From Gemmatimonadota bacterium (GTDB lineage Bacteria; Gemmatimonadota; Gemmatimonadetes; Palauibacterales; KS3-K002): DNA of 64,000 bases. Made by a program: the position numbers and the translations under genes. Of the stretch, positions 1 to 25,842 are shown piece by piece. The stretch lies in contig JBDHJU010000007.1 in NCBI GenBank assembly GCA_039586755.1, positions 27,876 to 91,875 on the forward strand. The letters run 5' to 3'. Under the pieces are notes generated by a model. The model was not told the DNA's origin. It did no database searches and saw only the letters and a program-made list of their open reading frames with translations. Each line of letters starts with the position of its first letter. Position 1 is the stretch's first letter.

Positions 1-161
1 AGGAGGGTCGGGTCGAGAAGACCGAGGATGTCGTGAAGCGCGGCGACACCGTCAAGGTCAAACTGATCTCGATCGACGACCGCGGCCGCATGCGCCTGTC
101 GCGCAAAGCGGCGATGTCGTCGGAGACTGAGCCAGAAGCGGAACCGGCCGAGCGCTCGTGA
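1..161 (+). CDS. pnp: Polynucleotide phosphorylase (PNPase), C-terminal S1 domain, 5'-truncated by window edge
   Basis: Translation ...DVVKRGDTVKVKLISIDDRGRMRLSRKAAMSSETEPEAEPAERS* matches the conserved C-terminal S1 RNA-binding tail of PNPase. Stop TGA at 159-161. Confidence 0.8.
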   Translation, partial: EGRVEKTEDVVKRGDTVKVKLISIDDRGRMRLSRKAAMSSETEPEAEPAERS

Positions 162-238: not shown

Positions 239-1525
239 ATGACCGGCGCCGCCGCTGACGAGACTGTGCAGCTCGATGAGGCCGTCTTCCGGACCCAATT
301 CGACGGTGGGCCGATTGTTCTTTCCGAGCATATCTCCACCGTGCGCTCTGCGGCCGTCGGCATTTGGGTCCGTTGGGGGGCCAGCCACGATGACGCGGCG
401 AGGATGGGGTCTTCTCACCTGTTGGAGCACATGGTGTTCAAGGGGACCGAGGGGCGGACGGCTCGCCAGATCCCGCTCGAGGTGGAGGGAATCGGTGGGT
501 CGCTGGACGCCTACACGTCACGCGAGCACACGGCCTGTTACGCCAAAGTACTGGACGAGCACCTCCCCATCGCCGTGGACGTACTCGCAGACCTGGTTTT
601 CCGGCCGTTGCTGCGCGAGGAGGACTTAGAGGTCGAGCGCCGGGTGATCCTCGAGGAGATCGCCGGCGTCGACGACACACCGGAGGAGCTCGTCTTTGAT
701 CTCCACGCGCGCGCCACATGGGGCGAGCATCCCTATGGCAACCCCGTGCTCGGAACGGTGGAAACCGTCAACTCTATAACGCTCGACGACCTTCACGGCC
801 TCTGGCGCGCCGCCTACCGGCCGGGCGCCTGTGTGGTTGCCGCAGCGGGGAACGTCGAGCACGACCGAGTGCTCGAGTTGGTGACGCAGTACTTTCCTCA
901 GGTTCGAGAGCAAGTTGAGGGGCCGGGCGTTCCGCAGCCGGCTCCGTCAGGGCCGGAAGAGAGAATGGTCGAGCGCGAGACCGCGCAGGCCCACATCTGC
1001 ATGGGCGCGCCGACATTTCCGCGCAGTGATCTACGTCGTTACGGAGCGATTCTCGTCTCCACGGCCCTGGGCGGTGGCATGAGCAGCCGATTGTTCCAGC
1101 GTGTCAGGGAAGAACTGGGCCTGGCGTACGCGATCTACACCTTCCAATCGTTCTACGCCCGCGGTGGCCTGGCCGGCGTCTATATGGCGACCCGGCCCGA
1201 CAGCGCCGAGCGAGCGGTCGAGGAGGTCCGTAGCGAGCTGGGTCAGCTGTCTGGCACCGGCCTTGCAAGTGATGAGCTTGAGGCAGTCAAGAACCAGACG
1301 AAGGGGCAGGTACTACTGTCGCTGGAGTCGACATCGGCGCGGCTACAGCGTCTCGCCGGTGTGGCACTTTACGACGAACCGTACCTGACTTTGGACGAGA
1401 TTTGCGCGAAGATCGACGCGGTCGGCGAGGAGGAGGTGGCCGACCTCTGCCGGAAATACTATGCCCCTGAGCACCAGGCAGTGATCCGACTCGGCCCCGA
1501 GCCCCAAGAGGCCGAGCCCAAATAG
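239..1525 (+). CDS. M16 family zinc metallopeptidase (insulinase/pitrilysin-like)
   Basis: 428 aa. Inverted zinc-binding motif HLLEH (HxxEH) near N-terminus. Position after pnp is a conserved gene neighbourhood. Confidence 0.8.
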   Translation: MTGAAADETVQLDEAVFRTQFDGGPIVLSEHISTVRSAAVGIWVRWGASHDDAARMGSSHLLEHMVFKGTEGRTARQIPLEVEGIGGSLDAYTSREHTACYAKVLDEHLPIAVDVLADLVFRPLLREEDLEVERRVILEEIAGVDDTPEELVFDLHARATWGEHPYGNPVLGTVETVNSITLDDLHGLWRAAYRPGACVVAAAGNVEHDRVLELVTQYFPQVREQVEGPGVPQPAPSGPEERMVERETAQAHICMGAPTFPRSDLRRYGAILVSTALGGGMSSRLFQRVREELGLAYAIYTFQSFYARGGLAGVYMATRPDSAERAVEEVRSELGQLSGTGLASDELEAVKNQTKGQVLLSLESTSARLQRLAGVALYDEPYLTLDEICAKIDAVGEEEVADLCRKYYAPEHQAVIRLGPEPQEAEPK

Positions 1526-9485: not shown

Positions 9486-10784
9486 GTGACGAGCTCTGAT
9501 CTCTCGGAGCTGCTCGGGCTGCAGCCTACCGGGCAGATCCACTGGGGTCTTCGACGGACCCGTGCCATGCTGCACGGCGTCGGCCGGCCACACATGGCCT
9601 ACCGATCTGTGCACGTCGGTGGGACTAATGGCAAGGGCTCGGTGGCCGCGATGGTAGCCAGCATCTTGAATGCGGCCGGGCGGCGCGTTGGTCTGTACAC
9701 GTCCCCGCATCTTGTCGAGTTCCGAGAGCGGATCCAAGTGGATGGGCGCCCCGTCGATGAGGAGTTGCTCGGCGCGTGTGCTTCTCGGTTGCGCCCGTTC
9801 GTGAAGGAAGGCGCGACGTTCTTCGAGGCGGCTACTGCTTTGGCTTTGCTTTGTTTCGCAGAGGCCGGGGTCGATTTCGCTGTCGCGGAAGTCGGCTTGG
9901 GCGGGCGGCTGGATGCGACGAACGTCCTGCTGCCGGAGGTGGCGGCGATCACCAACGTTGCCTGGGACCATTCCGAATACCTGGGTAACACGCTGTCGGC
10001 CATCGCCGGTGAGAAGGTGGGGATAGCCAAGCCCGGGGTACCGCTGGTCCTGGGGCGTCTCGAGCCGGAGGCGGGCAGGATCATTCGAGAGACCGCGGAG
10101 CGGGTGGGTGCACCGCTTTCCCAGATCGGCTACGATGCCGGTGTGCGGCGCATCAGAATCCACAGCGACCACACCGAGTTGGAGTACGTCGGGCCCGACT
10201 CGGATGAGGCGATCTCTCTGCGTTGCCCCTTGGTCGGCTACCATCAGGCGTGGAACGTCGGGCTCGCCGCACTGGCCGTTCAGAATCTGCCCCGGCCGTG
10301 GCGGCCGGCGCCGGCCGCGGTGCAGAAGGGGATCGCGGATGTCCAATGGCCCGGCAGGTTGCAGATCGAGGAATGCGGCGACCGGACTTGGGTTCTCGAC
10401 GTTGCGCACAACGTTGTCGGTGTGGAAGCGCTCGCGCAGGCGCTCACGACTCTCGATCTGCGAGGTCCACTGGCGCTGGTGGTTGCGATCTTGGGCGATA
10501 AGCCGTGGCCCGAGATGCTACCGCCTCTGTTGGCGCTGGCAGACGTCTCGATCTTTACCGTGGCTCCGAGCTCGCCGCCCGAGAGACGTTGGGACGCATC
10601 AGAAGTGGCAGCGACTATATCGAGTTATCCGGTGGAGGTGATCGAGGATTTCGGGGCGGCTCTGCAGTACGCGTCGCAGGTCGCGTCGACCATCGTAGTG
10701 ACCGGTTCGAACCATACGGTGGGCGACGCGATGCGTGAGCTGGGCATAGCGGTCTCCTTGCTCGACACGAATAAGGTCGGATAG
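9486..10784 (+). CDS. folC: Bifunctional folylpolyglutamate synthase / dihydrofolate synthase
   Basis: 432 aa Mur-ligase fold with P-loop GGTNGKGS. Conserved accD-folC gene pair. GTG start. Confidence 0.85.
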   Translation: MTSSDLSELLGLQPTGQIHWGLRRTRAMLHGVGRPHMAYRSVHVGGTNGKGSVAAMVASILNAAGRRVGLYTSPHLVEFRERIQVDGRPVDEELLGACASRLRPFVKEGATFFEAATALALLCFAEAGVDFAVAEVGLGGRLDATNVLLPEVAAITNVAWDHSEYLGNTLSAIAGEKVGIAKPGVPLVLGRLEPEAGRIIRETAERVGAPLSQIGYDAGVRRIRIHSDHTELEYVGPDSDEAISLRCPLVGYHQAWNVGLAALAVQNLPRPWRPAPAAVQKGIADVQWPGRLQIEECGDRTWVLDVAHNVVGVEALAQALTTLDLRGPLALVVAILGDKPWPEMLPPLLALADVSIFTVAPSSPPERRWDASEVAATISSYPVEVIEDFGAALQYASQVASTIVVTGSNHTVGDAMRELGIAVSLLDTNKVG

Positions 10785-19129: not shown

Positions 19130-20287
19130 ATGGCGGCTGAAGCTCGGGACCCACGTGAGACCATCACCCCCGACGCCTTCTCGGTGGCGCCGAACCTACT
19201 CGGCACACCGCTAGCCCGACCGTGGCGTAGGGGTGTCGCGATGGGGATCGACCTGCTGGCCATCGCCATCATCGCCGGATTGCGCATTTCGTGGTTCCTG
19301 TTCTTTTTCGCCCTCACGATCCTTTTCTTCCGGGCGGCCATGCGCCCGTCCGCCAGCGCACTTCGCAAGGGGACCCGCCGCACAACCTTCGGTGTGCTCG
19401 CCGCACTGGCACTGGTCGGGACGCTGATCGCCGGATACGAAGCGTTCGGCGATTTCGGCCGGCTCTCATGGATCGGCGCCGACGAATCGGCGGAGACCGA
19501 AGACGCGCAGGAACTGAGCGTTATGGATGCCTTTGGGACGGCGCGGGACGCCGTTGCGGTCCAGTCGGCTGTGTCGGCGACCGAGATGACGGATGCGGCG
19601 ACTCGACTCGGCGCGCGGCTGCAGAGCATGGGAGTCGAAGGCGCCGAGATTCGGGCCACGCTGGACGAATTGGCCGAGAGAAAGGCGGAGCCCTGGGCGC
19701 GGGATGCCATGACCGCCGCGCTGGCGAATCTGGGCCTCGAAGTGGTGGCGCTCAAACGGCAGGTTGACCCCGATTCCCTCCTCCTTGCCTACGCCGCCGC
19801 GCTGCAGGCGGGTGATTCGGCCGCCACGGGCTCGCTCCGCGAGCCGCTCGTCGATGCGATCGCTGCCGACCGCATCGAGGCGCTGGAGGGAAGAAACGAG
19901 CGGCTGGTCGCCGACAACCAAGAGCTGGAGCAACGGCTCGAGCAGGAGAGGAGCCGCGGGCTCATCAGCATGATCACAAGGATCCTGAACGAGGTCGGTA
20001 TCGAGTTCGGTTGGTCGGCCCTTTACTTCACCTTCTTACCGGTGATCTGGCGAGGACGAACGCCGGGTAAGCGTCTCTTAGGTGTGCGTATCGTGCGGCT
20101 GGATGGTAGACCGCTCGGCTGGTGGTCCGCTCTTAACCGCTTCGGCGGCTATGCCGCCTCGATCTTCACCGGCCTGCTCGGCTTCTTCGAGATGTTTTGG
20201 GACGACAACCGCCAAGCCATGCAGGACCGCATCGCCGCAACTGTGGTCGTGCGGGAGACGAGCGGCCCGGCCCGGTCGGCCGGGTAG
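19130..20287 (+). CDS. RDD family membrane protein with long central coiled-coil insertion
   Basis: ATG 19130 preceded by GGAGGAGGG. N-terminal RDD-like segment (WRRGVAMGIDLLAIAIIAGL), C-terminal half GKRLLGVRIVRLDGRPLGWWSALNRFGGY typical of RDD domains. About 200-aa charged/coiled-coil linker between them. Confidence 0.65.
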   Translation: MAAEARDPRETITPDAFSVAPNLLGTPLARPWRRGVAMGIDLLAIAIIAGLRISWFLFFFALTILFFRAAMRPSASALRKGTRRTTFGVLAALALVGTLIAGYEAFGDFGRLSWIGADESAETEDAQELSVMDAFGTARDAVAVQSAVSATEMTDAATRLGARLQSMGVEGAEIRATLDELAERKAEPWARDAMTAALANLGLEVVALKRQVDPDSLLLAYAAALQAGDSAATGSLREPLVDAIAADRIEALEGRNERLVADNQELEQRLEQERSRGLISMITRILNEVGIEFGWSALYFTFLPVIWRGRTPGKRLLGVRIVRLDGRPLGWWSALNRFGGYAASIFTGLLGFFEMFWDDNRQAMQDRIAATVVVRETSGPARSAG

Positions 20288-20411
20288 GCTACGAAACCGG
20301 AGCGGTGGGGACCCTCGTACGTTAAGATGATACAGGCCGTGCTGACCGTGCCGACTACGGTCGTGGAGGGACAGCTACTGATCACCGACCACCGGGAGTC
20401 CAGGAGGAAAA

Positions 20412-20912
20412 GTGGAAAACGAATCGGGTTCGAACGCGTCCGGACGCGGCGCGCTTGCTGAATTCAAGGATGCCGTCACCAACCTGTTCGATCAAGTGAG
20501 CAGCCAGGTGACCAGTCTCATCCCCGACCTCGGTTTCGGCCGCGAGTTCCCCAGGCACGAGCTGCGGGTCGAGGACGACGGCTACCGCGTGTTGATCGAG
20601 CTCCCGGGATTCAAGCGCGAGGAGACCGACGTATCTGTCGTCGGCCGTACCCTGACCGTCTCCGGTCAGCGCGCGCGCTTCGAGCCGCCTGCCGGTGGCC
20701 GGATGCTGCGCAGCGAGCGACCTTCGGGTGACTTCGAGCTCAACGTCCGACTTCCCTCCGAAGTAGACGCAGTCGCCGTCGTCGCCCAGATGCGAGACGG
20801 CGTTCTGGACGTGCGCTTGCCCGGACACAAAGGGGCCCGCGGGCGCAGTATCGATGTCGAAGAGGAATCCGAGAACCAGCAGGACGAACCGGGGACCCAC
20901 GCCGATGGATAG
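20412..20912 (+). CDS. Hsp20/alpha-crystallin family small heat-shock protein
   Basis: GTG start after AGGAGGA RBS. Alpha-crystallin domain pattern (..DDGYRVLIELPGFKREETDVSVVGRTLTVSGQR...DGVLDVRLPG). Confidence 0.8.
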   Translation: MENESGSNASGRGALAEFKDAVTNLFDQVSSQVTSLIPDLGFGREFPRHELRVEDDGYRVLIELPGFKREETDVSVVGRTLTVSGQRARFEPPAGGRMLRSERPSGDFELNVRLPSEVDAVAVVAQMRDGVLDVRLPGHKGARGRSIDVEEESENQQDEPGTHADG

Positions 20913-21297
20913 AATCGACAAGGACGAACTGCGCGAGGCGGAGCAGAGCGAGGCAACTAGGGAACAGCGGGAAGTTCGGGCCCGACGCCGCCGTTACGTG
21001 CGCCCGCCAGTCGACATCTACTCGACCGCGTCGGAGATGGTTGTTCTCGCCGACATGCCCGGCGTCCAGAAGGGTGACCTCGGCATAACCGTCGAGCGCG
21101 ACGAGCTCGTCCTCGAGGCCAAAGCCGCCGGCCGCGCCGAGGAGGAAAGCACGCTTCCCTGGGGGTACTACCGGCGATTCAAGCTCAAGACCGCCTTCGA
21201 TCGCGAGCGCATCGCCGCGCGACTCGAGAATGGTATCGTGCGCGTCACCCTGCCAAAGGCCGCCAGCGAACAGACGCATAAAGTAGAGGTCGACTGA
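20905..21297 (+). CDS. Hsp20/alpha-crystallin family small heat-shock protein (second tandem copy)
   Basis: MDRIDKDEL start overlaps upstream stop (ATGGATAG). ADMPGVQKGDLGITVERDELVLEA...GIVRVTLPK alpha-crystallin domain. ORF track begins 20854. Confidence 0.75.
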   Translation: MDRIDKDELREAEQSEATREQREVRARRRRYVRPPVDIYSTASEMVVLADMPGVQKGDLGITVERDELVLEAKAAGRAEEESTLPWGYYRRFKLKTAFDRERIAARLENGIVRVTLPKAASEQTHKVEVD

Positions 21298-21367
21298 CCA
21301 ATAGCGCCGGGGCCCGGCCGCTCGTCCGGGCGGGGCCCCCGTCCCGGTCCCACCCAGCGGCGCCGCA

Positions 21368-21419
21368 CTGCCGTTATGGCAGCTTTCCGTGGCACGCGAG
21401 TTGCCCCTTACTGTATAAT
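21368..21419 (+). promoter_or_regulatory. Candidate sigma54 (-24/-12) promoter TGGCACGcgagTTGC with adjacent 13-bp palindrome and overlapping TGTATAAT element, upstream of clpB
   Basis: 21390-21404 TGGCACG-N4-TTGC matches the RpoN consensus core. 21369-21381 TGCCgttatGGCA is a perfect inverted repeat. TATAAT at 21414-21419 preceded by TG. clpB ATG at 21499. Confidence 0.45.
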
Positions 21420-21498
21420 TTGATGTCTCTTCACGTCGCGCGCGCTCGAGCCGGGGCCGAGGGCGGGCGTCGCGATCAGCAGGAGGTGAGAGCGGTAG

Positions 21499-24096
21499 AT
21501 GATCTCGTTTGACCGACTGACGGTGAAGGCCGGAGAGGCGCTGCAGGCTTCGATCAGCCTGGCCAGCGGGCGGGGAAACCCTGCGGTGGAGGACATCCAT
21601 CTGCTCCAGGCGTTGCTGGACCAGGAGGGTGGTGTGGCCGGGCCGCTCTTGGGCCGTGTGGGCGTCCGCTATGAGCAGCTGGGAAAGAAGGTGAGCGAGG
21701 CGCTGGATCGACTGGCGCGCCAGGAGGGCGCGTCCGGCGCGATGCCGTCACGGGAACTGGTCCAGGTCCTGGATGAGGCGGAGAAGGAAGCGAGGGAGCT
21801 TGGCGACCAGTTCGTCTCGAGCGAGCATCTGCTGCTGGCGCTGCATTCGAAGGCGGCGAGCACGACGGGTCCGCTGCTCAAAGGCCTGGGTGCGACGCGT
21901 GAGGGTCTGTTACAGGCGATCCTGGACATGCGGGGTCCGCATCGTGTGACCGACAGGGAAGCGGAGGAAAAGTATCAGACGATTCAGAAGTTCACGATCG
22001 ACCTGACAGACATGGCGCGGCGTGGCAAGCTGGACCCGGTGATCGGGCGCGATGAGGAAATCCGGCGCGTCATGCAGGTGCTGTCGAGGCGGACGAAGAA
22101 CAACCCGGTGCTGATCGGCGAGCCCGGAGTCGGCAAGACGGCGATCGTAGAGGGCCTTGCCCAGCGCATCGTAAACGGCGACGTGCCCGAGTCTTTGAGC
22201 AACAAGCAGCTTATCCAGGTCGACATCGCGAGCATGATTGCGGGGACGAAGTATCGCGGCCAATTCGAGGAGCGCTTCAAAGCGCTACTGAAGGAGATCA
22301 CCGAGAGCGAAGGCCTGTACGTCGTCTTCATCGACGAGCTGCATACGATCGTCGGCGCCGGCGCGGCGGAGGGCGCGGTGGACGCGGGCAACATGATGAA
22401 GCCATTGCTTGCCCGCGGTCAGCTGCGTGTCGTCGGTGCGACGACGCTGAACGAGTATCGCGAGCACGTAGAGACCGACACGGCCCTGGAGCGGCGTTTC
22501 CAGCCGATCTTCACTTCGGAGCCGAGCGTCGAGGACACGGTGGGAATTCTGCGGGGCCTGAAGGAGCGCTACGAGGTTCATCACGGCGTACGGATCACCG
22601 ATGGCGCCATAGTATCGGCGGCGCGGCTTTCCAATCGCTACATCGCCGATCGGTTTTTGCCTGACAAGGCCATCGACCTAATCGACGAGGCGGCCTCGAT
22701 GCTGAGGATCGAGATCGATTCGATGCCGCTGGAGATCGACGAGGTGGAACGGCGGACCGTTCAGCTCGAGATCGAGAAGCAGGCGTTGCAGAAGGAGGAG
22801 GACAAAGAGAGCCGCAAGCGGCTGGAGCGGCTTGAAAAAGAGCTGGCCGAGCTGCGCGAGCGGTCCAGCGGTATGAAGGCGAAGTGGCAAGCCGAGAAAG
22901 AGGCGATCGAGAACATCCGTACGCTCAAGAGCCTGATCGAGAATCTGCGGGTCGACGCCGAACAGGCGACGCGGACCGGCGAGCACGGCAAGGTGGCGGA
23001 GATCGTTCACGGCAAGATCCCGGCGATGGAGAAGGAGTTGAAGGGGGCGACCGAGAAACTCGCCCGGCTCCAGGAGGAGTCACGTTACCTCAAGGAGGAA
23101 GTGACCGAGGAAGACATCGCGGCGGTCGTCTCGCGCTGGACGGGGATTCCGGTCTCCAAGATGATGGAGAGCGAGCGCGAGCGCCTCGTCCACCTCGAGG
23201 AACACCTTCACCAGCGCGTCGTCAATCAGAGTCAGGCCATCGAAGCGGTGGCCAACGCCGTGCGCCGTAACCGTGCAGGCCTGCAGGACCCCAATCGTCC
23301 GGTCGGCAGCTTCATATTCCTCGGTCCTACCGGTGTCGGTAAGACCGAGACCGCCAGGGCGCTTGCCGCGTTCCTGTTCGACGACGAGGCGGCGATGGTC
23401 CGTCTCGACATGTCGGAGTACATGGAACGCCACTCGGTGGCCCGGCTTATCGGAGCACCGCCAGGATACATCGGCTACGAGGAGGGCGGTCAGCTGACCG
23501 AGCGGGTTCGCCGGCGGCCGTACAGCGTAGTCCTGTTCGATGAGATCGAGAAGGCGCACCCCGACGTCTTCAATATCCTGTTGCAGGTGCTGGACGACGG
23601 ACGGCTCACAGACAGTCACGGTCGGACAGTGGACTTCCGCAACACCGTCCTGATCATGACCTCGAATATCGGTGGCCAGTGGATCCTCGAACCGGAGGCC
23701 GAGGGCGATTGGGAAGAGGTCGAGAAGCGCGTCTGGGAGGGTTTGCGCGCCACCTTCAGGCCCGAGTTCCTGAACCGCGTAGATGACATCATCGTTTACC
23801 AGATGCTGGGCCGCGACGAGCTGAGAAAGATCGTCGATCTGCAGCTCGGGCACGCCGGTTCGCTGCTGGCTGAACAAAAACTGACGCTCGATGTCACGGA
23901 TGCGGCACGCGACCTGATATCGGCGGAAGGTTACGAGCCCGCCTTCGGTGCCCGACCGCTGAAGCGCGCGCTCCAGCAGTTGCTCTTCAATCCGCTATCC
24001 ACAGCGGTTCTCGAGGGAACCTTCAGTGAGGGCGACAAAGTCATTGTCGATCGTCAGCCCGACGAGGACCAGCTTTCCTTCCGGAAGGCGGAGTGA
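21499..24096 (+). CDS. clpB: ATP-dependent chaperone ClpB (disaggregase)
   Basis: 865 aa. Two AAA+ modules ([16 protein letters not shown] Walker A), coiled-coil M-domain, collinear with E. coli ClpB. GGAGGTGA RBS. Confidence 0.95.
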
Positions 24097-24939: not shown

Positions 24940-25350
24940 CTAGCCTGCCCGTTCGCAGAGCTCGAGCAGCACTCCAAGGGTACCCCCAGGGTGGAGGAAA
25001 GCCACGCGGCGGCCGCCGGCCCCACGCCTGGGAGCTTCGCCGACGGGCGCCAGTCCCGCCGCCTGGCAGCGCTCCAGAGCGGCTTCCACGTCTGTTACCT
25101 CCAGAGCGATGTGGTGCAGGCCGGGCCCGCGCCGCTCCAGGAAGCGCCCTACGGGCGAGTCGGAGGCGGTGGGCTCGAGGAGCTCCAGCCTGGCGTCACC
25201 GAGGTCGAAGAAGGCGATCTGTACCTGTTCCGAGTCGACGACCTCGCGACCCGAGTCGGGCCGGCCCAGAACAGCGCTGTAGACGGCCACCGCCGCGTCG
25301 AGATCCTCCACGGCGATTGCCACGTGCTCGAGACGAGCCTCTAGTCCCAT
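24940..25350 (-). CDS. VOC/glyoxalase-family protein, methylmalonyl-CoA epimerase-like
   Basis: MGLEARLEHVAIAVEDLDAAVAVYSAVLG... about 137 aa, typical VOC beta-alpha-beta-beta-beta module. The 297-aa ORF in the track is a spurious 5' extension antisense to trxA. Confidence 0.7.
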   Translation of the reverse strand: MGLEARLEHVAIAVEDLDAAVAVYSAVLGRPDSGREVVDSEQVQIAFFDLGDARLELLEPTASDSPVGRFLERRGPGLHHIALEVTDVEAALERCQAAGLAPVGEAPRRGAGGRRVAFLHPGGTLGVLLELCERAG

Positions 25351-25515
25351 CGGGAACCCCTTGACACAGGTATACGTTACATCGCCGGTGCCGGGCCGGT
25401 CGGGGCCTGCCTCGGCGGCGCCAGCCCGAAGATTATGATATAATTGGTGTCGTGTGAAAGGGGCAGGCGCAGGACGCCGGTCGGCAAGGTGGGAGCGTCG
25501 GAATTGGAGAGAGTA

Positions 25516-25842
25516 ATGGGGGTCGTGAAAGAGGTCACCGACGAGACGTTCGCTGAGGAGGTAGAACAGATTGACGGTGTGGCGATGGTGGACTTCTGGG
25601 CCGCCTGGTGCGGGCCCTGTCGCCTCGTGGCGCCGATCGTCGAGGATCTGGCACACGAGTACGAGGGCCAGGTCAAAGTAGCGAAGCTCGACGTCGATGC
25701 GAGCCAGCGGACGGCGTTTCGGTTCAACATCCGGTCGATACCGAGCATCCTGTTCTTCAAGGACGGGGAGCATGTGGATACGGTGATCGGCTATGTCCCC
25801 AAGCAGGCCTTGGAACAGAAGCTCAAGCAGCACCTGGACTGA
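25516..25842 (+). CDS. trxA: Thioredoxin
   Basis: 108 aa from ATG 25516 (RBS GGAGAG). WCGPC active site. Canonical thioredoxin length and sequence. Confidence 0.9.
   Translation: MGVVKEVTDETFAEEVEQIDGVAMVDFWAAWCGPCRLVAPIVEDLAHEYEGQVKVAKLDVDASQRTAFRFNIRSIPSILFFKDGEHVDTVIGYVPKQALEQKLKQHLD

Follow-up and report, generated by a model that had tools for sequence, protein, structure and literature searches.

The clpB locus and its upstream signal

The 64,000-nucleotide stretch analysed here (the window; contig JBDHJU010000007.1 of a Gemmatimonadota bacterium) carries a clpB gene at 21499–24096 on the + strand, encoding a protein of 865 aa with the Pfam domains Clp_N, AAA, AAA_lid_9, AAA_2 and ClpB_D2-small; public gene calls agree with this assignment. 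A composite signal of 37 bp lies upstream of it at 21368–21404. From its sequence and distribution we consider it likely that this signal is the clpB promoter, made of a sigma-54-type -24/-12 element and of a regulator-binding inverted repeat held at a fixed position, and that it belongs to a chaperone regulon of the Gemmatimonadota. What follows documents how the signal is conserved, how its parts are spaced, which genes it precedes and in which taxa it occurs.

The region 21366–21419 reads CA-CTGCC-GTTAT-GGCAG-CTTTCCG-TGGCACG-CGAG-TTGCC-CCTTAC-TGTATAAT. The inverted repeat CTGCC/GGCAG (21368–21382, + strand), a putative site for a dimeric regulator centred at about -41 from the predicted transcription start, has 5-bp arms and a non-palindromic 5-nt spacer, GTTAT. 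It is followed by a gap of 8 nt, CTTTCCGT (21383–21390, + strand), which separates it from the GG of the -24 element, is of fixed length and is T-rich in most members of the family. The promoter core itself, TGGCACGCGAGTTGC at 21390–21404 on the + strand, comprises the -24 element TGGCACG (21390–21396), a match to the sigma-54 consensus, and most of the -12 block GTTGCC (21400–21405), with the GG (21391–92) and the GC (21403–04) exactly 10 nt apart; the base after TTGC is a C, the sigma-54 consensus being A or T. The C of the GC is separated from the clpB ATG at 21499 by 94 nt. An earlier note on this DNA, made from the sequence alone, had placed here a sigma-54 core with exact GG and GC at the right spacing, about 95 nt from the clpB start codon, and both statements are borne out. 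The same note had described a perfect 13-bp palindrome; an inverted repeat is indeed present, but its arms are of 5 bp and the spacer between them is not palindromic.

From sigma-54 geometry, transcription is predicted to start at 21415–21417 (+ strand), 11–13 nt past the C of the GC, which would give a 5' leader of about 83 nt (21416–21498, + strand) with the Shine-Dalgarno sequence AGGAGG at 21481–86. Folding of the clpB leader (95 nt) was no better than that of shuffled sequences (z = 0.01), and it had no Rfam match.

Two copies of the full consensus TGGCAC-N5-TTGC are present in the window, against 0.09 expected, and one of the composite pattern CTGCC-N5-GGC-N10-GGCAY-N5-TTGC even with two mismatches allowed, against 0.04 expected. 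The repeat taken by itself is at chance level (TGCC-N5-GGCA, one found against 1.47 expected), so that its significance lies in its conservation only. The second consensus copy, TGGCACCGGCCTTGC at 1252–1266 (+ strand), falls within the open reading frame (ORF) 239–1525, about 270 nt before its stop codon, has no repeat upstream and is probably a chance match.

Other known kinds of heat-shock signal were looked for in the window. CIRCE (controlling inverted repeat of chaperone expression) and the sigma-32 promoter (TTGAAA-N13-16-CCCCAT) gave no match, and HAIR (HspR-associated inverted repeat) gave a single match, at chance level and far from clpB. An automatic scan of 20200–21600 for sigma-70 promoters and terminators returned nothing relevant on the + strand. 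The possibility that the repeat acts at the RNA level, as a terminator of the upstream hsp20 genes, a hairpin or a thermometer, was rejected, the folds of 21295–21366 (z = 0.51) and 21360–21412 (z = 0.23) not being above those of shuffled sequences.

Conservation in the clade of the window

Six relatives (L117, 96% ClpB identity; L210–L214, 95, 90, 87, 84 and 81%) were fetched by ClpB identity alone, and the gene order RDD-hsp20-hsp20-clpB is conserved in L210–L214. An island of 47 nt (21364–21410, + strand), which covers the whole promoter signal, is 100% identical between the window and L117, both flanks having diverged. When the hsp20-clpB spacers of all seven sequences (81–100% ClpB identity; 200–300 nt intergenic) are aligned, only four blocks upstream of the ribosome-binding site are invariant, namely TGCC (21369–72), GGCAG (21378–82), TGGCAC (21390–95) and GTTGCC (21400–05). 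The spacer inside the repeat varies in the clade (GTTAT, AGATC, AGACT, AAAGT), and in the two most distant members the 5 nt that separate the -24 block from the -12 block vary as well. Four invariant blocks in drifting surroundings indicate two separately constrained elements, an inverted repeat of the kind bound by proteins and a -24/-12 promoter.

The ClpB protein of the window is found identical on metagenome contigs of the Joint Genome Institute of at most 257 kb, and its nearest named relatives (90–95% identity) are labelled Gemmatimonadota or Gemmatimonadetes bacterium.

The signal precedes chaperone genes across Gemmatimonadota

A scan of metagenome contigs with CTGCC-N5-GGC-N10-GGCAY-N5-TTGC yielded at least 121 sites in at least 120 loci. 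Among the matches listed, the 107 ORFs immediately downstream include 18 GrpE, 17 Hsp70, 16 ClpB and 2 Hsp20, to which closer inspection added one GroES and one further GrpE, and no family other than chaperones recurs. About half of the sites listed thus directly precede dnaK, grpE-dnaJ, clpB, hsp20 or groES, dnaJ following grpE at the grpE loci; the remainder lie mostly within long ORFs and have GC-rich spacers, as background would give. Positions left free in the pattern also differ between the two groups of listed matches: the base after GGC is A in 47 of 52 chaperone-linked sites vs 24 of 65 others, and the central spacer base is A or T in 52 of 52 vs 34 of 65. An enrichment in T is seen at -32 to -30 among the same matches, and the chaperone-linked sites with a taxonomic assignment are all from Gemmatimonadota (Gemmatimonadales, Gemmatimonadaceae or Longimicrobium).

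The signal was also recovered from loci fetched by protein similarity. Among 80 clpB loci from species-representative genomes (11 Gemmatimonadota and 69 from other phyla), the full composite of repeat, fixed gap and GG-N10-GC precedes clpB in 5 of 11 Gemmatimonadota loci vs 0 of 69 others, and TGCC-N5-GGC within 250 nt upstream of clpB is found in 9 of 11 vs 4 of 69. The full composite is present in all four Gemmatimonadales/HR33 dnaK loci fetched by protein identity; in bacterium HR33, for example, it reads CTGCC-ATTTT-GGCAT-CTAAGGCT-GGTAC-GCAGC-TTGCA. Nearly all loci, among them the window, L006–L010, L201 and L207–L209, have 8 nt between the repeat and the GG, and L003 and L214 have 9 nt. 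The unselected clpB and dnaK loci of the phylum display GGTAT, GGTAC and GGCAT at -24 and GTGC and GAGC at -12, all variants that the sigma-54 consensus tolerates. Other matches to CTGCC-N5-GGCAG, in non-Gemmatimonadota loci and in coding regions, have GC-rich spacers and were taken as chance.

The same promoter type therefore stands before several core chaperone genes in one lineage (dnaK, grpE-dnaJ, clpB, hsp20 and groES in Gemmatimonadota), and this presence of a two-part signal across the phylum would place the clpB of the window in a phylum-wide protein-quality-control regulon of heat-shock type. The claim of a sigma-54-type clpB promoter is upheld by the blocks and spacing of the -24/-12 element, invariant in the seven clade members, and by its recurrence before other Gemmatimonadota clpB genes and before dnaK.

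Some loci deserve separate mention. In four Gemmatimonadales loci (L201, L207, L208 and L209) a rhomboid protease gene is divergent from dnaK, the composite promoter lying in the 130–180-nt region between them, and an HtrA-like protease gene follows dnaK. A 1003-nt contig of 51% GC (L169) holds two composite promoters facing in opposite directions, one at 45–81 (+ strand) and one on the - strand, with a third CTGCCAAAATGGCA nearby and downstream ORFs without Pfam match. At 9989–10025 of L180, a composite-like CTGCC-AGATC-GGCGG-N8-GGCAC-GGTCG-TTGC is followed 13 nt later by an ATG and lies between divergent genes for an FHA-domain sigma-54 activator and a type II/IV secretion ATPase. This last site may be an unrelated sigma-54 promoter that happens to match the pattern, or a non-chaperone member of the regulon.

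Distance to the start codon

The ATG lies only 13–16 nt after TTGC in 12 of 25 clpB orthologues (L103, L105, L110, L122, L139, L148, L150, L155, L177, L193, L194 and L006), with neither a Shine-Dalgarno sequence nor a -10-like hexamer between the two. This distance fits only a geometry of the -12 type. Transcription should then start within this gap, as a -12 element predicts, which implies that these mRNAs would have a leader of 2–5 nt and would effectively be leaderless transcripts of a sigma-54-type promoter. The clade of the window differs from these loci by its longer predicted leader with a good Shine-Dalgarno sequence.

The dnaK leader is of constant length, the ATG lying 55–57 nt after TTGC in 21 of 24 loci. 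L082, L084, L125, L141, L146, L173, L207–L209 and other dnaK loci share a conserved TGCGACG near the predicted start and, in mid-leader, an invariant GCATC; no consensus RNA structure was predicted for the dnaK leaders.

A proposed sigma-54 promoter with an adjoining regulator site

In the mechanism that we propose, the sigma-54 holoenzyme would read the -24/-12 element, as suggested by what is established for sigma-54 promoters and by the gene set, and RNA polymerase would be kept at TGGCAC-N5-TTGC as a closed complex, with a start near 21416. CTGCC-N5-GGCAG, which lies at about -41 with a fixed gap of 8 nt to the -24 GG, would be bound by a dimeric regulator devoted to chaperone genes. An AAA+ enhancer-binding activator should be required, as for every known sigma-54 promoter, and, given the rigid spacing of the repeat, the regulator bound there may touch the holoenzyme or this activator directly, with no DNA loop between them. 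Judging from the gene set, the inducing signal would be protein-folding stress. Sigma-54 and enhancer-binding proteins are present in Gemmatimonas aurantiaca T-27 (PMC3372290 Table 1; PMC3162934 supplement).

Several observations weigh against this interpretation. A search with signature peptides turned up neither rpoN nor a gene for a GAFTGA-type enhancer-binding protein across the 64 kb of the window, and neither was seen within ±4 kb of related clpB loci; over 200 loci the same search found no RpoN box and a single enhancer-binding protein, the FHA-domain one of L180, which looks unrelated and is the only one among the 120 motif loci listed. Enhancer-binding proteins usually act from 70–150 bp upstream via a loop, and a site abutting the -24 element is atypical. 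The base at -26 is G or C in most Gemmatimonadales sites, the consensus T being found in 6 of 52 among the matches listed; it is T in the window's own clade. In L004, L005 and L043, clpB carries the repeat with no recognisable -24/-12 element, so that the two parts can be uncoupled. Finally, the sites of the scan were chosen by pattern, and the independent evidence consists only of the unconstrained positions, the downstream genes and the loci fetched by protein.

The repeat has conserved arms and a free spacer, which suits a dimeric helix-turn-helix protein. It is single in the window and in the dnaK loci, and L192 has two copies 63 bp apart upstream of hsp20. Upstream of clpB in the Longimicrobiales locus L043 (3868–3965), three identical CTGCCAAAATGGCAG repeats lie 41–42 bp apart, none of them followed by a -24/-12 element, with a weak TGGCACGAATCTTTC further upstream; this is the same operator in another layout. 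Such in-phase multiple copies, like the conserved arms and the free spacer, point to a dimeric DNA-binding protein at the repeat. The genes next to grpE-dnaJ, dnaK and clpB encode CinA, rhomboid and HtrA-like proteases, PhoU and SelB-like proteins, none of them a transcription factor. Classical upstream activating sequences are placed 70–150 bp upstream, with flexible position and at least two sites, and this is not the arrangement seen here, where the gap to the -24 element is of 8 nt, rarely 9. Such a rigid gap suggests a direct contact with the transcription complex, not a looping enhancer and not a simple roadblock either. An activator docking site is for this reason the favoured role of the repeat, but the repeat without -24/-12 element in the three loci named above keeps a repressor in play.

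We advance more tentatively, as a proposal that may well prove wrong, that the core chaperone regulon of Gemmatimonadota (dnaK, grpE-dnaJ, clpB, hsp20 and some groES) is driven by sigma-54 with a dedicated activator that, from a single repeat at about -41, remodels the holoenzyme without a loop. If true, this would be an enhancer-less sigma-54 promoter architecture together with a new kind of bacterial heat-shock sensor.

Alternative explanations

The nearest alternative keeps the sigma-54 promoter and makes the repeat the operator of a repressor that sits against the upstream edge of the holoenzyme and blocks it, or blocks the activator, until it is released by folding stress, following a logic like that of HrcA-CIRCE or HspR-HAIR. 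We regard it as rather unlikely. The repeats that stand before clpB without a -24/-12 element, above all the multiple copies of L043, suit an operator independent of the promoter, conserved arms around a free spacer are typical of dimeric repressors, and repressors control most of the known bacterial chaperone regulons without sigma-32. However, a repressor needs to overlap the promoter and not to keep a fixed distance from it, whereas here the repeat does not overlap the -24/-12 core and the gap is held at 8 (rarely 9) nt across dnaK, grpE, clpB and hsp20 in several families; moreover, sigma-54 promoters are already silent without their activator, which makes an additional repressor unnecessary. 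A role of the repeat as a general upstream extension of the sigma-54 promoters of the phylum, read by the holoenzyme itself (through the alpha C-terminal domain or sigma-54) and not specific to a regulon, would also account for the rigid spacing, and we give it a small chance. Each GG[CT]A[CT]-N5-TTGC that lies between genes in 560 kb of Gemmatimonadota DNA is accompanied by the repeat or by a degenerate copy, and no intergenic sigma-54 promoter without it was found, but all of this DNA was collected around chaperone genes and is hence not a fair sample. The existence of the repeat without the -24/-12 element, and the recurrence of chaperones only among the 107 downstream genes of the matches listed, both argue against such a general extension.

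Two further alternatives do away with the sigma-54 promoter. The composite could be read as four GGCA/TGCC half-sites (TGCC-N5-GGCA and GGCA-N7-TGCC) of a transcription factor, the true promoter lying elsewhere: the -24/-12 element of the window, GGCAC-N5-TTGCC, is itself an imperfect inverted repeat built on the tetramer found in the upstream repeat, and the consensus T at -26 is missing in most Gemmatimonadales sites. We see little chance of this. Any base can follow TTGC (all four are seen in L201 and L207–209, and C in only 30 of the 52 chaperone-linked matches listed), which speaks against a fourth TGCC half-site, GGTAT and GGTAC break the GGCA half-site yet fit the sigma-54 consensus, and the orthologues with a short gap offer no other promoter signal between the element and the ATG. 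Still fainter is the chance that the real promoter is a sigma-70-type extended -10 at TGTATAAT (21412–21419, + strand), with the repeat as its operator and the -24/-12 match as a coincidence. In its favour, TATAAT is intergenic here, 80 nt before the ATG, and is rare in a window of 64% GC (3 copies, 1.86 expected). The earlier note had offered this TGn extended -10 as a fallback. It was right as to the presence of TGTATAAT, to TTGCCC lying 7 nt before it and to the lack of a -35, but the TG directly abuts TATAAT, so that the spacing of TGnTATAAT is not that found. TATAAT is furthermore confined to the window's own population, being absent from L117 and L210–L214 alike, even at 96% ClpB identity, while the -24/-12 blocks are invariant, and the orthologues with the ATG 13–16 nt past TTGC leave no room for a -10 hexamer. 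The restriction of TATAAT to a single population leads us to reject the sigma-70 alternative, and with it the fallback as far as the promoter is concerned. The only exact TGnTATAAT of the window, TGATATAAT (25436–25444, + strand; 0.07 expected by chance), falls within a long minus-strand ORF of the glyoxalase family (24940–25833).

The upstream hsp20 genes

Two hsp20 genes precede clpB on the same strand (20412–20912 and 20905–21297, + strand; Pfam HSP20, public gene calls), and they are without the composite signal. Before the first of them, at 20293–20319 (+ strand), GAAACC-N17-CGTA resembles a promoter of the extracytoplasmic function (ECF) sigma type, and the blocks GCGAAACC and CTCGTA of this upstream region are kept in most of six aligned clade members. 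This ECF-like signal suggests that the hsp20 pair and clpB are served by different promoter classes.

Comparison with known systems

Sigma-54 and a dedicated enhancer-binding activator are known to control stress or chaperone genes such as ibpB and psp in E. coli and lonD, with HsfA/HsfB, in Myxococcus xanthus. These cases differ from the present one in that they concern single genes or operons and not the core dnaK, grpE and clpB, and in that their activator sites lie from tens to more than 100 bp upstream. The upstream activating sequences of the NtrC family, such as TGCACC-N5-GGTGCA, have arms of 5–6 bp and a 5-bp spacer suited to a dimer with Fis-type helix-turn-helix, like the Gemmatimonadota repeat; classical enhancers are, however, multiple, distant and flexible in position, whereas the Gemmatimonadota site usually occurs as one copy, at a constant 8 nt from the -24 GG. 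The Gemmatimonadota signal resembles the HrcA-CIRCE and HspR-HAIR systems in that the chaperone regulon of the lineage is marked by a conserved inverted repeat. CIRCE (TTAGCACTC-N9-GAGTGCTAA) and HAIR (CTTGAGT-N7-ACTCAAG) both differ in sequence from CTGCC-N5-GGCAG, and these operators go with promoters of the sigma-70 type and keep no fixed distance to a -24 element.

The closest parallel is provided by Flavobacterium psychrophilum, in which sigma-54-type (SM4) promoters with mapped transcription start sites precede groES-groEL, lon, dnaK, grpE-dnaJ, htpG, skp, clpB and a rhomboid protease gene (PMC9723704). The earlier note had held that a sigma-54-dependent clpB would be unusual, which is true for Proteobacteria and Firmicutes but overlooks this mapped precedent. 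In both cases the -24/-12 element stands directly before protein-quality-control genes, F. psychrophilum belongs to the same Fibrobacteres-Chlorobi-Bacteroidetes (FCB) superphylum, and the activator is unidentified in Flavobacterium as well. However, 5' ends were mapped there, whereas the Gemmatimonadota promoters are known from sequence alone, and the -12 block is TTGA or CTGA in F. psychrophilum and TTGC in Gemmatimonadota. The groES, clpB and skp promoters of F. psychrophilum have no evident CTGCC-N5-GGCAG; lon alone shows TGCCAAAAGG, 21 nt before the GG. In this lon promoter, aTGCCAAAAGGATTTTCTTTATGGCACAATCCTTGAC (PMC9723704 Table S2), TGCC-AAAAG-G at that distance from the -24 GG weakly resembles the left half of the Gemmatimonadota element, and the groES and clpB promoters share a TGTC 18 nt before the GG. 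The rhomboid protease, whose gene is divergent from dnaK in Gemmatimonadales, is also on the Flavobacterium list.

A survey of 2025 predicts, for Bacteroidota and Planctomycetota, that sigma-54 promoters are enriched in front of chaperone COGs (PMC12316311). The genes concerned are similar (GroEL/ES, IbpA, GrpE, DnaJ, DnaK, the Clp ATPases of COG0542, and Lon), but the survey is a prediction by position weight matrix only, its text makes no mention of Gemmatimonadota, and no upstream repeat is described in it. In the library searched, we found nothing on chaperone promoters in connection with sigma-54 or RpoN in Gemmatimonadota, the one paper that names both Gemmatimonadota and sigma54 being concerned with biosynthetic gene clusters in a peatland community. 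A clpB driven by sigma-54 is thus not unprecedented, and the fixed upstream repeat and the phylum-wide chaperone regulon of Gemmatimonadota appear to be undescribed.

Significance

Heat sensing in bacteria is poorly known outside Proteobacteria and Firmicutes, and for the mapped sigma-54-type chaperone promoters of the FCB superphylum the activator and its signal are unidentified. The present signal is found phylum-wide, has two separable parts in a rigid geometry, and stands before the best-understood stress genes; the phylum is abundant in soil and includes cultured members (Gemmatimonas). For the window, the annotation would become that of a clpB with its own stress promoter, apart from the upstream hsp20 pair. 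More broadly, the signal would allow the chaperone regulon to be annotated in thousands of metagenome-assembled genomes of Gemmatimonadota.

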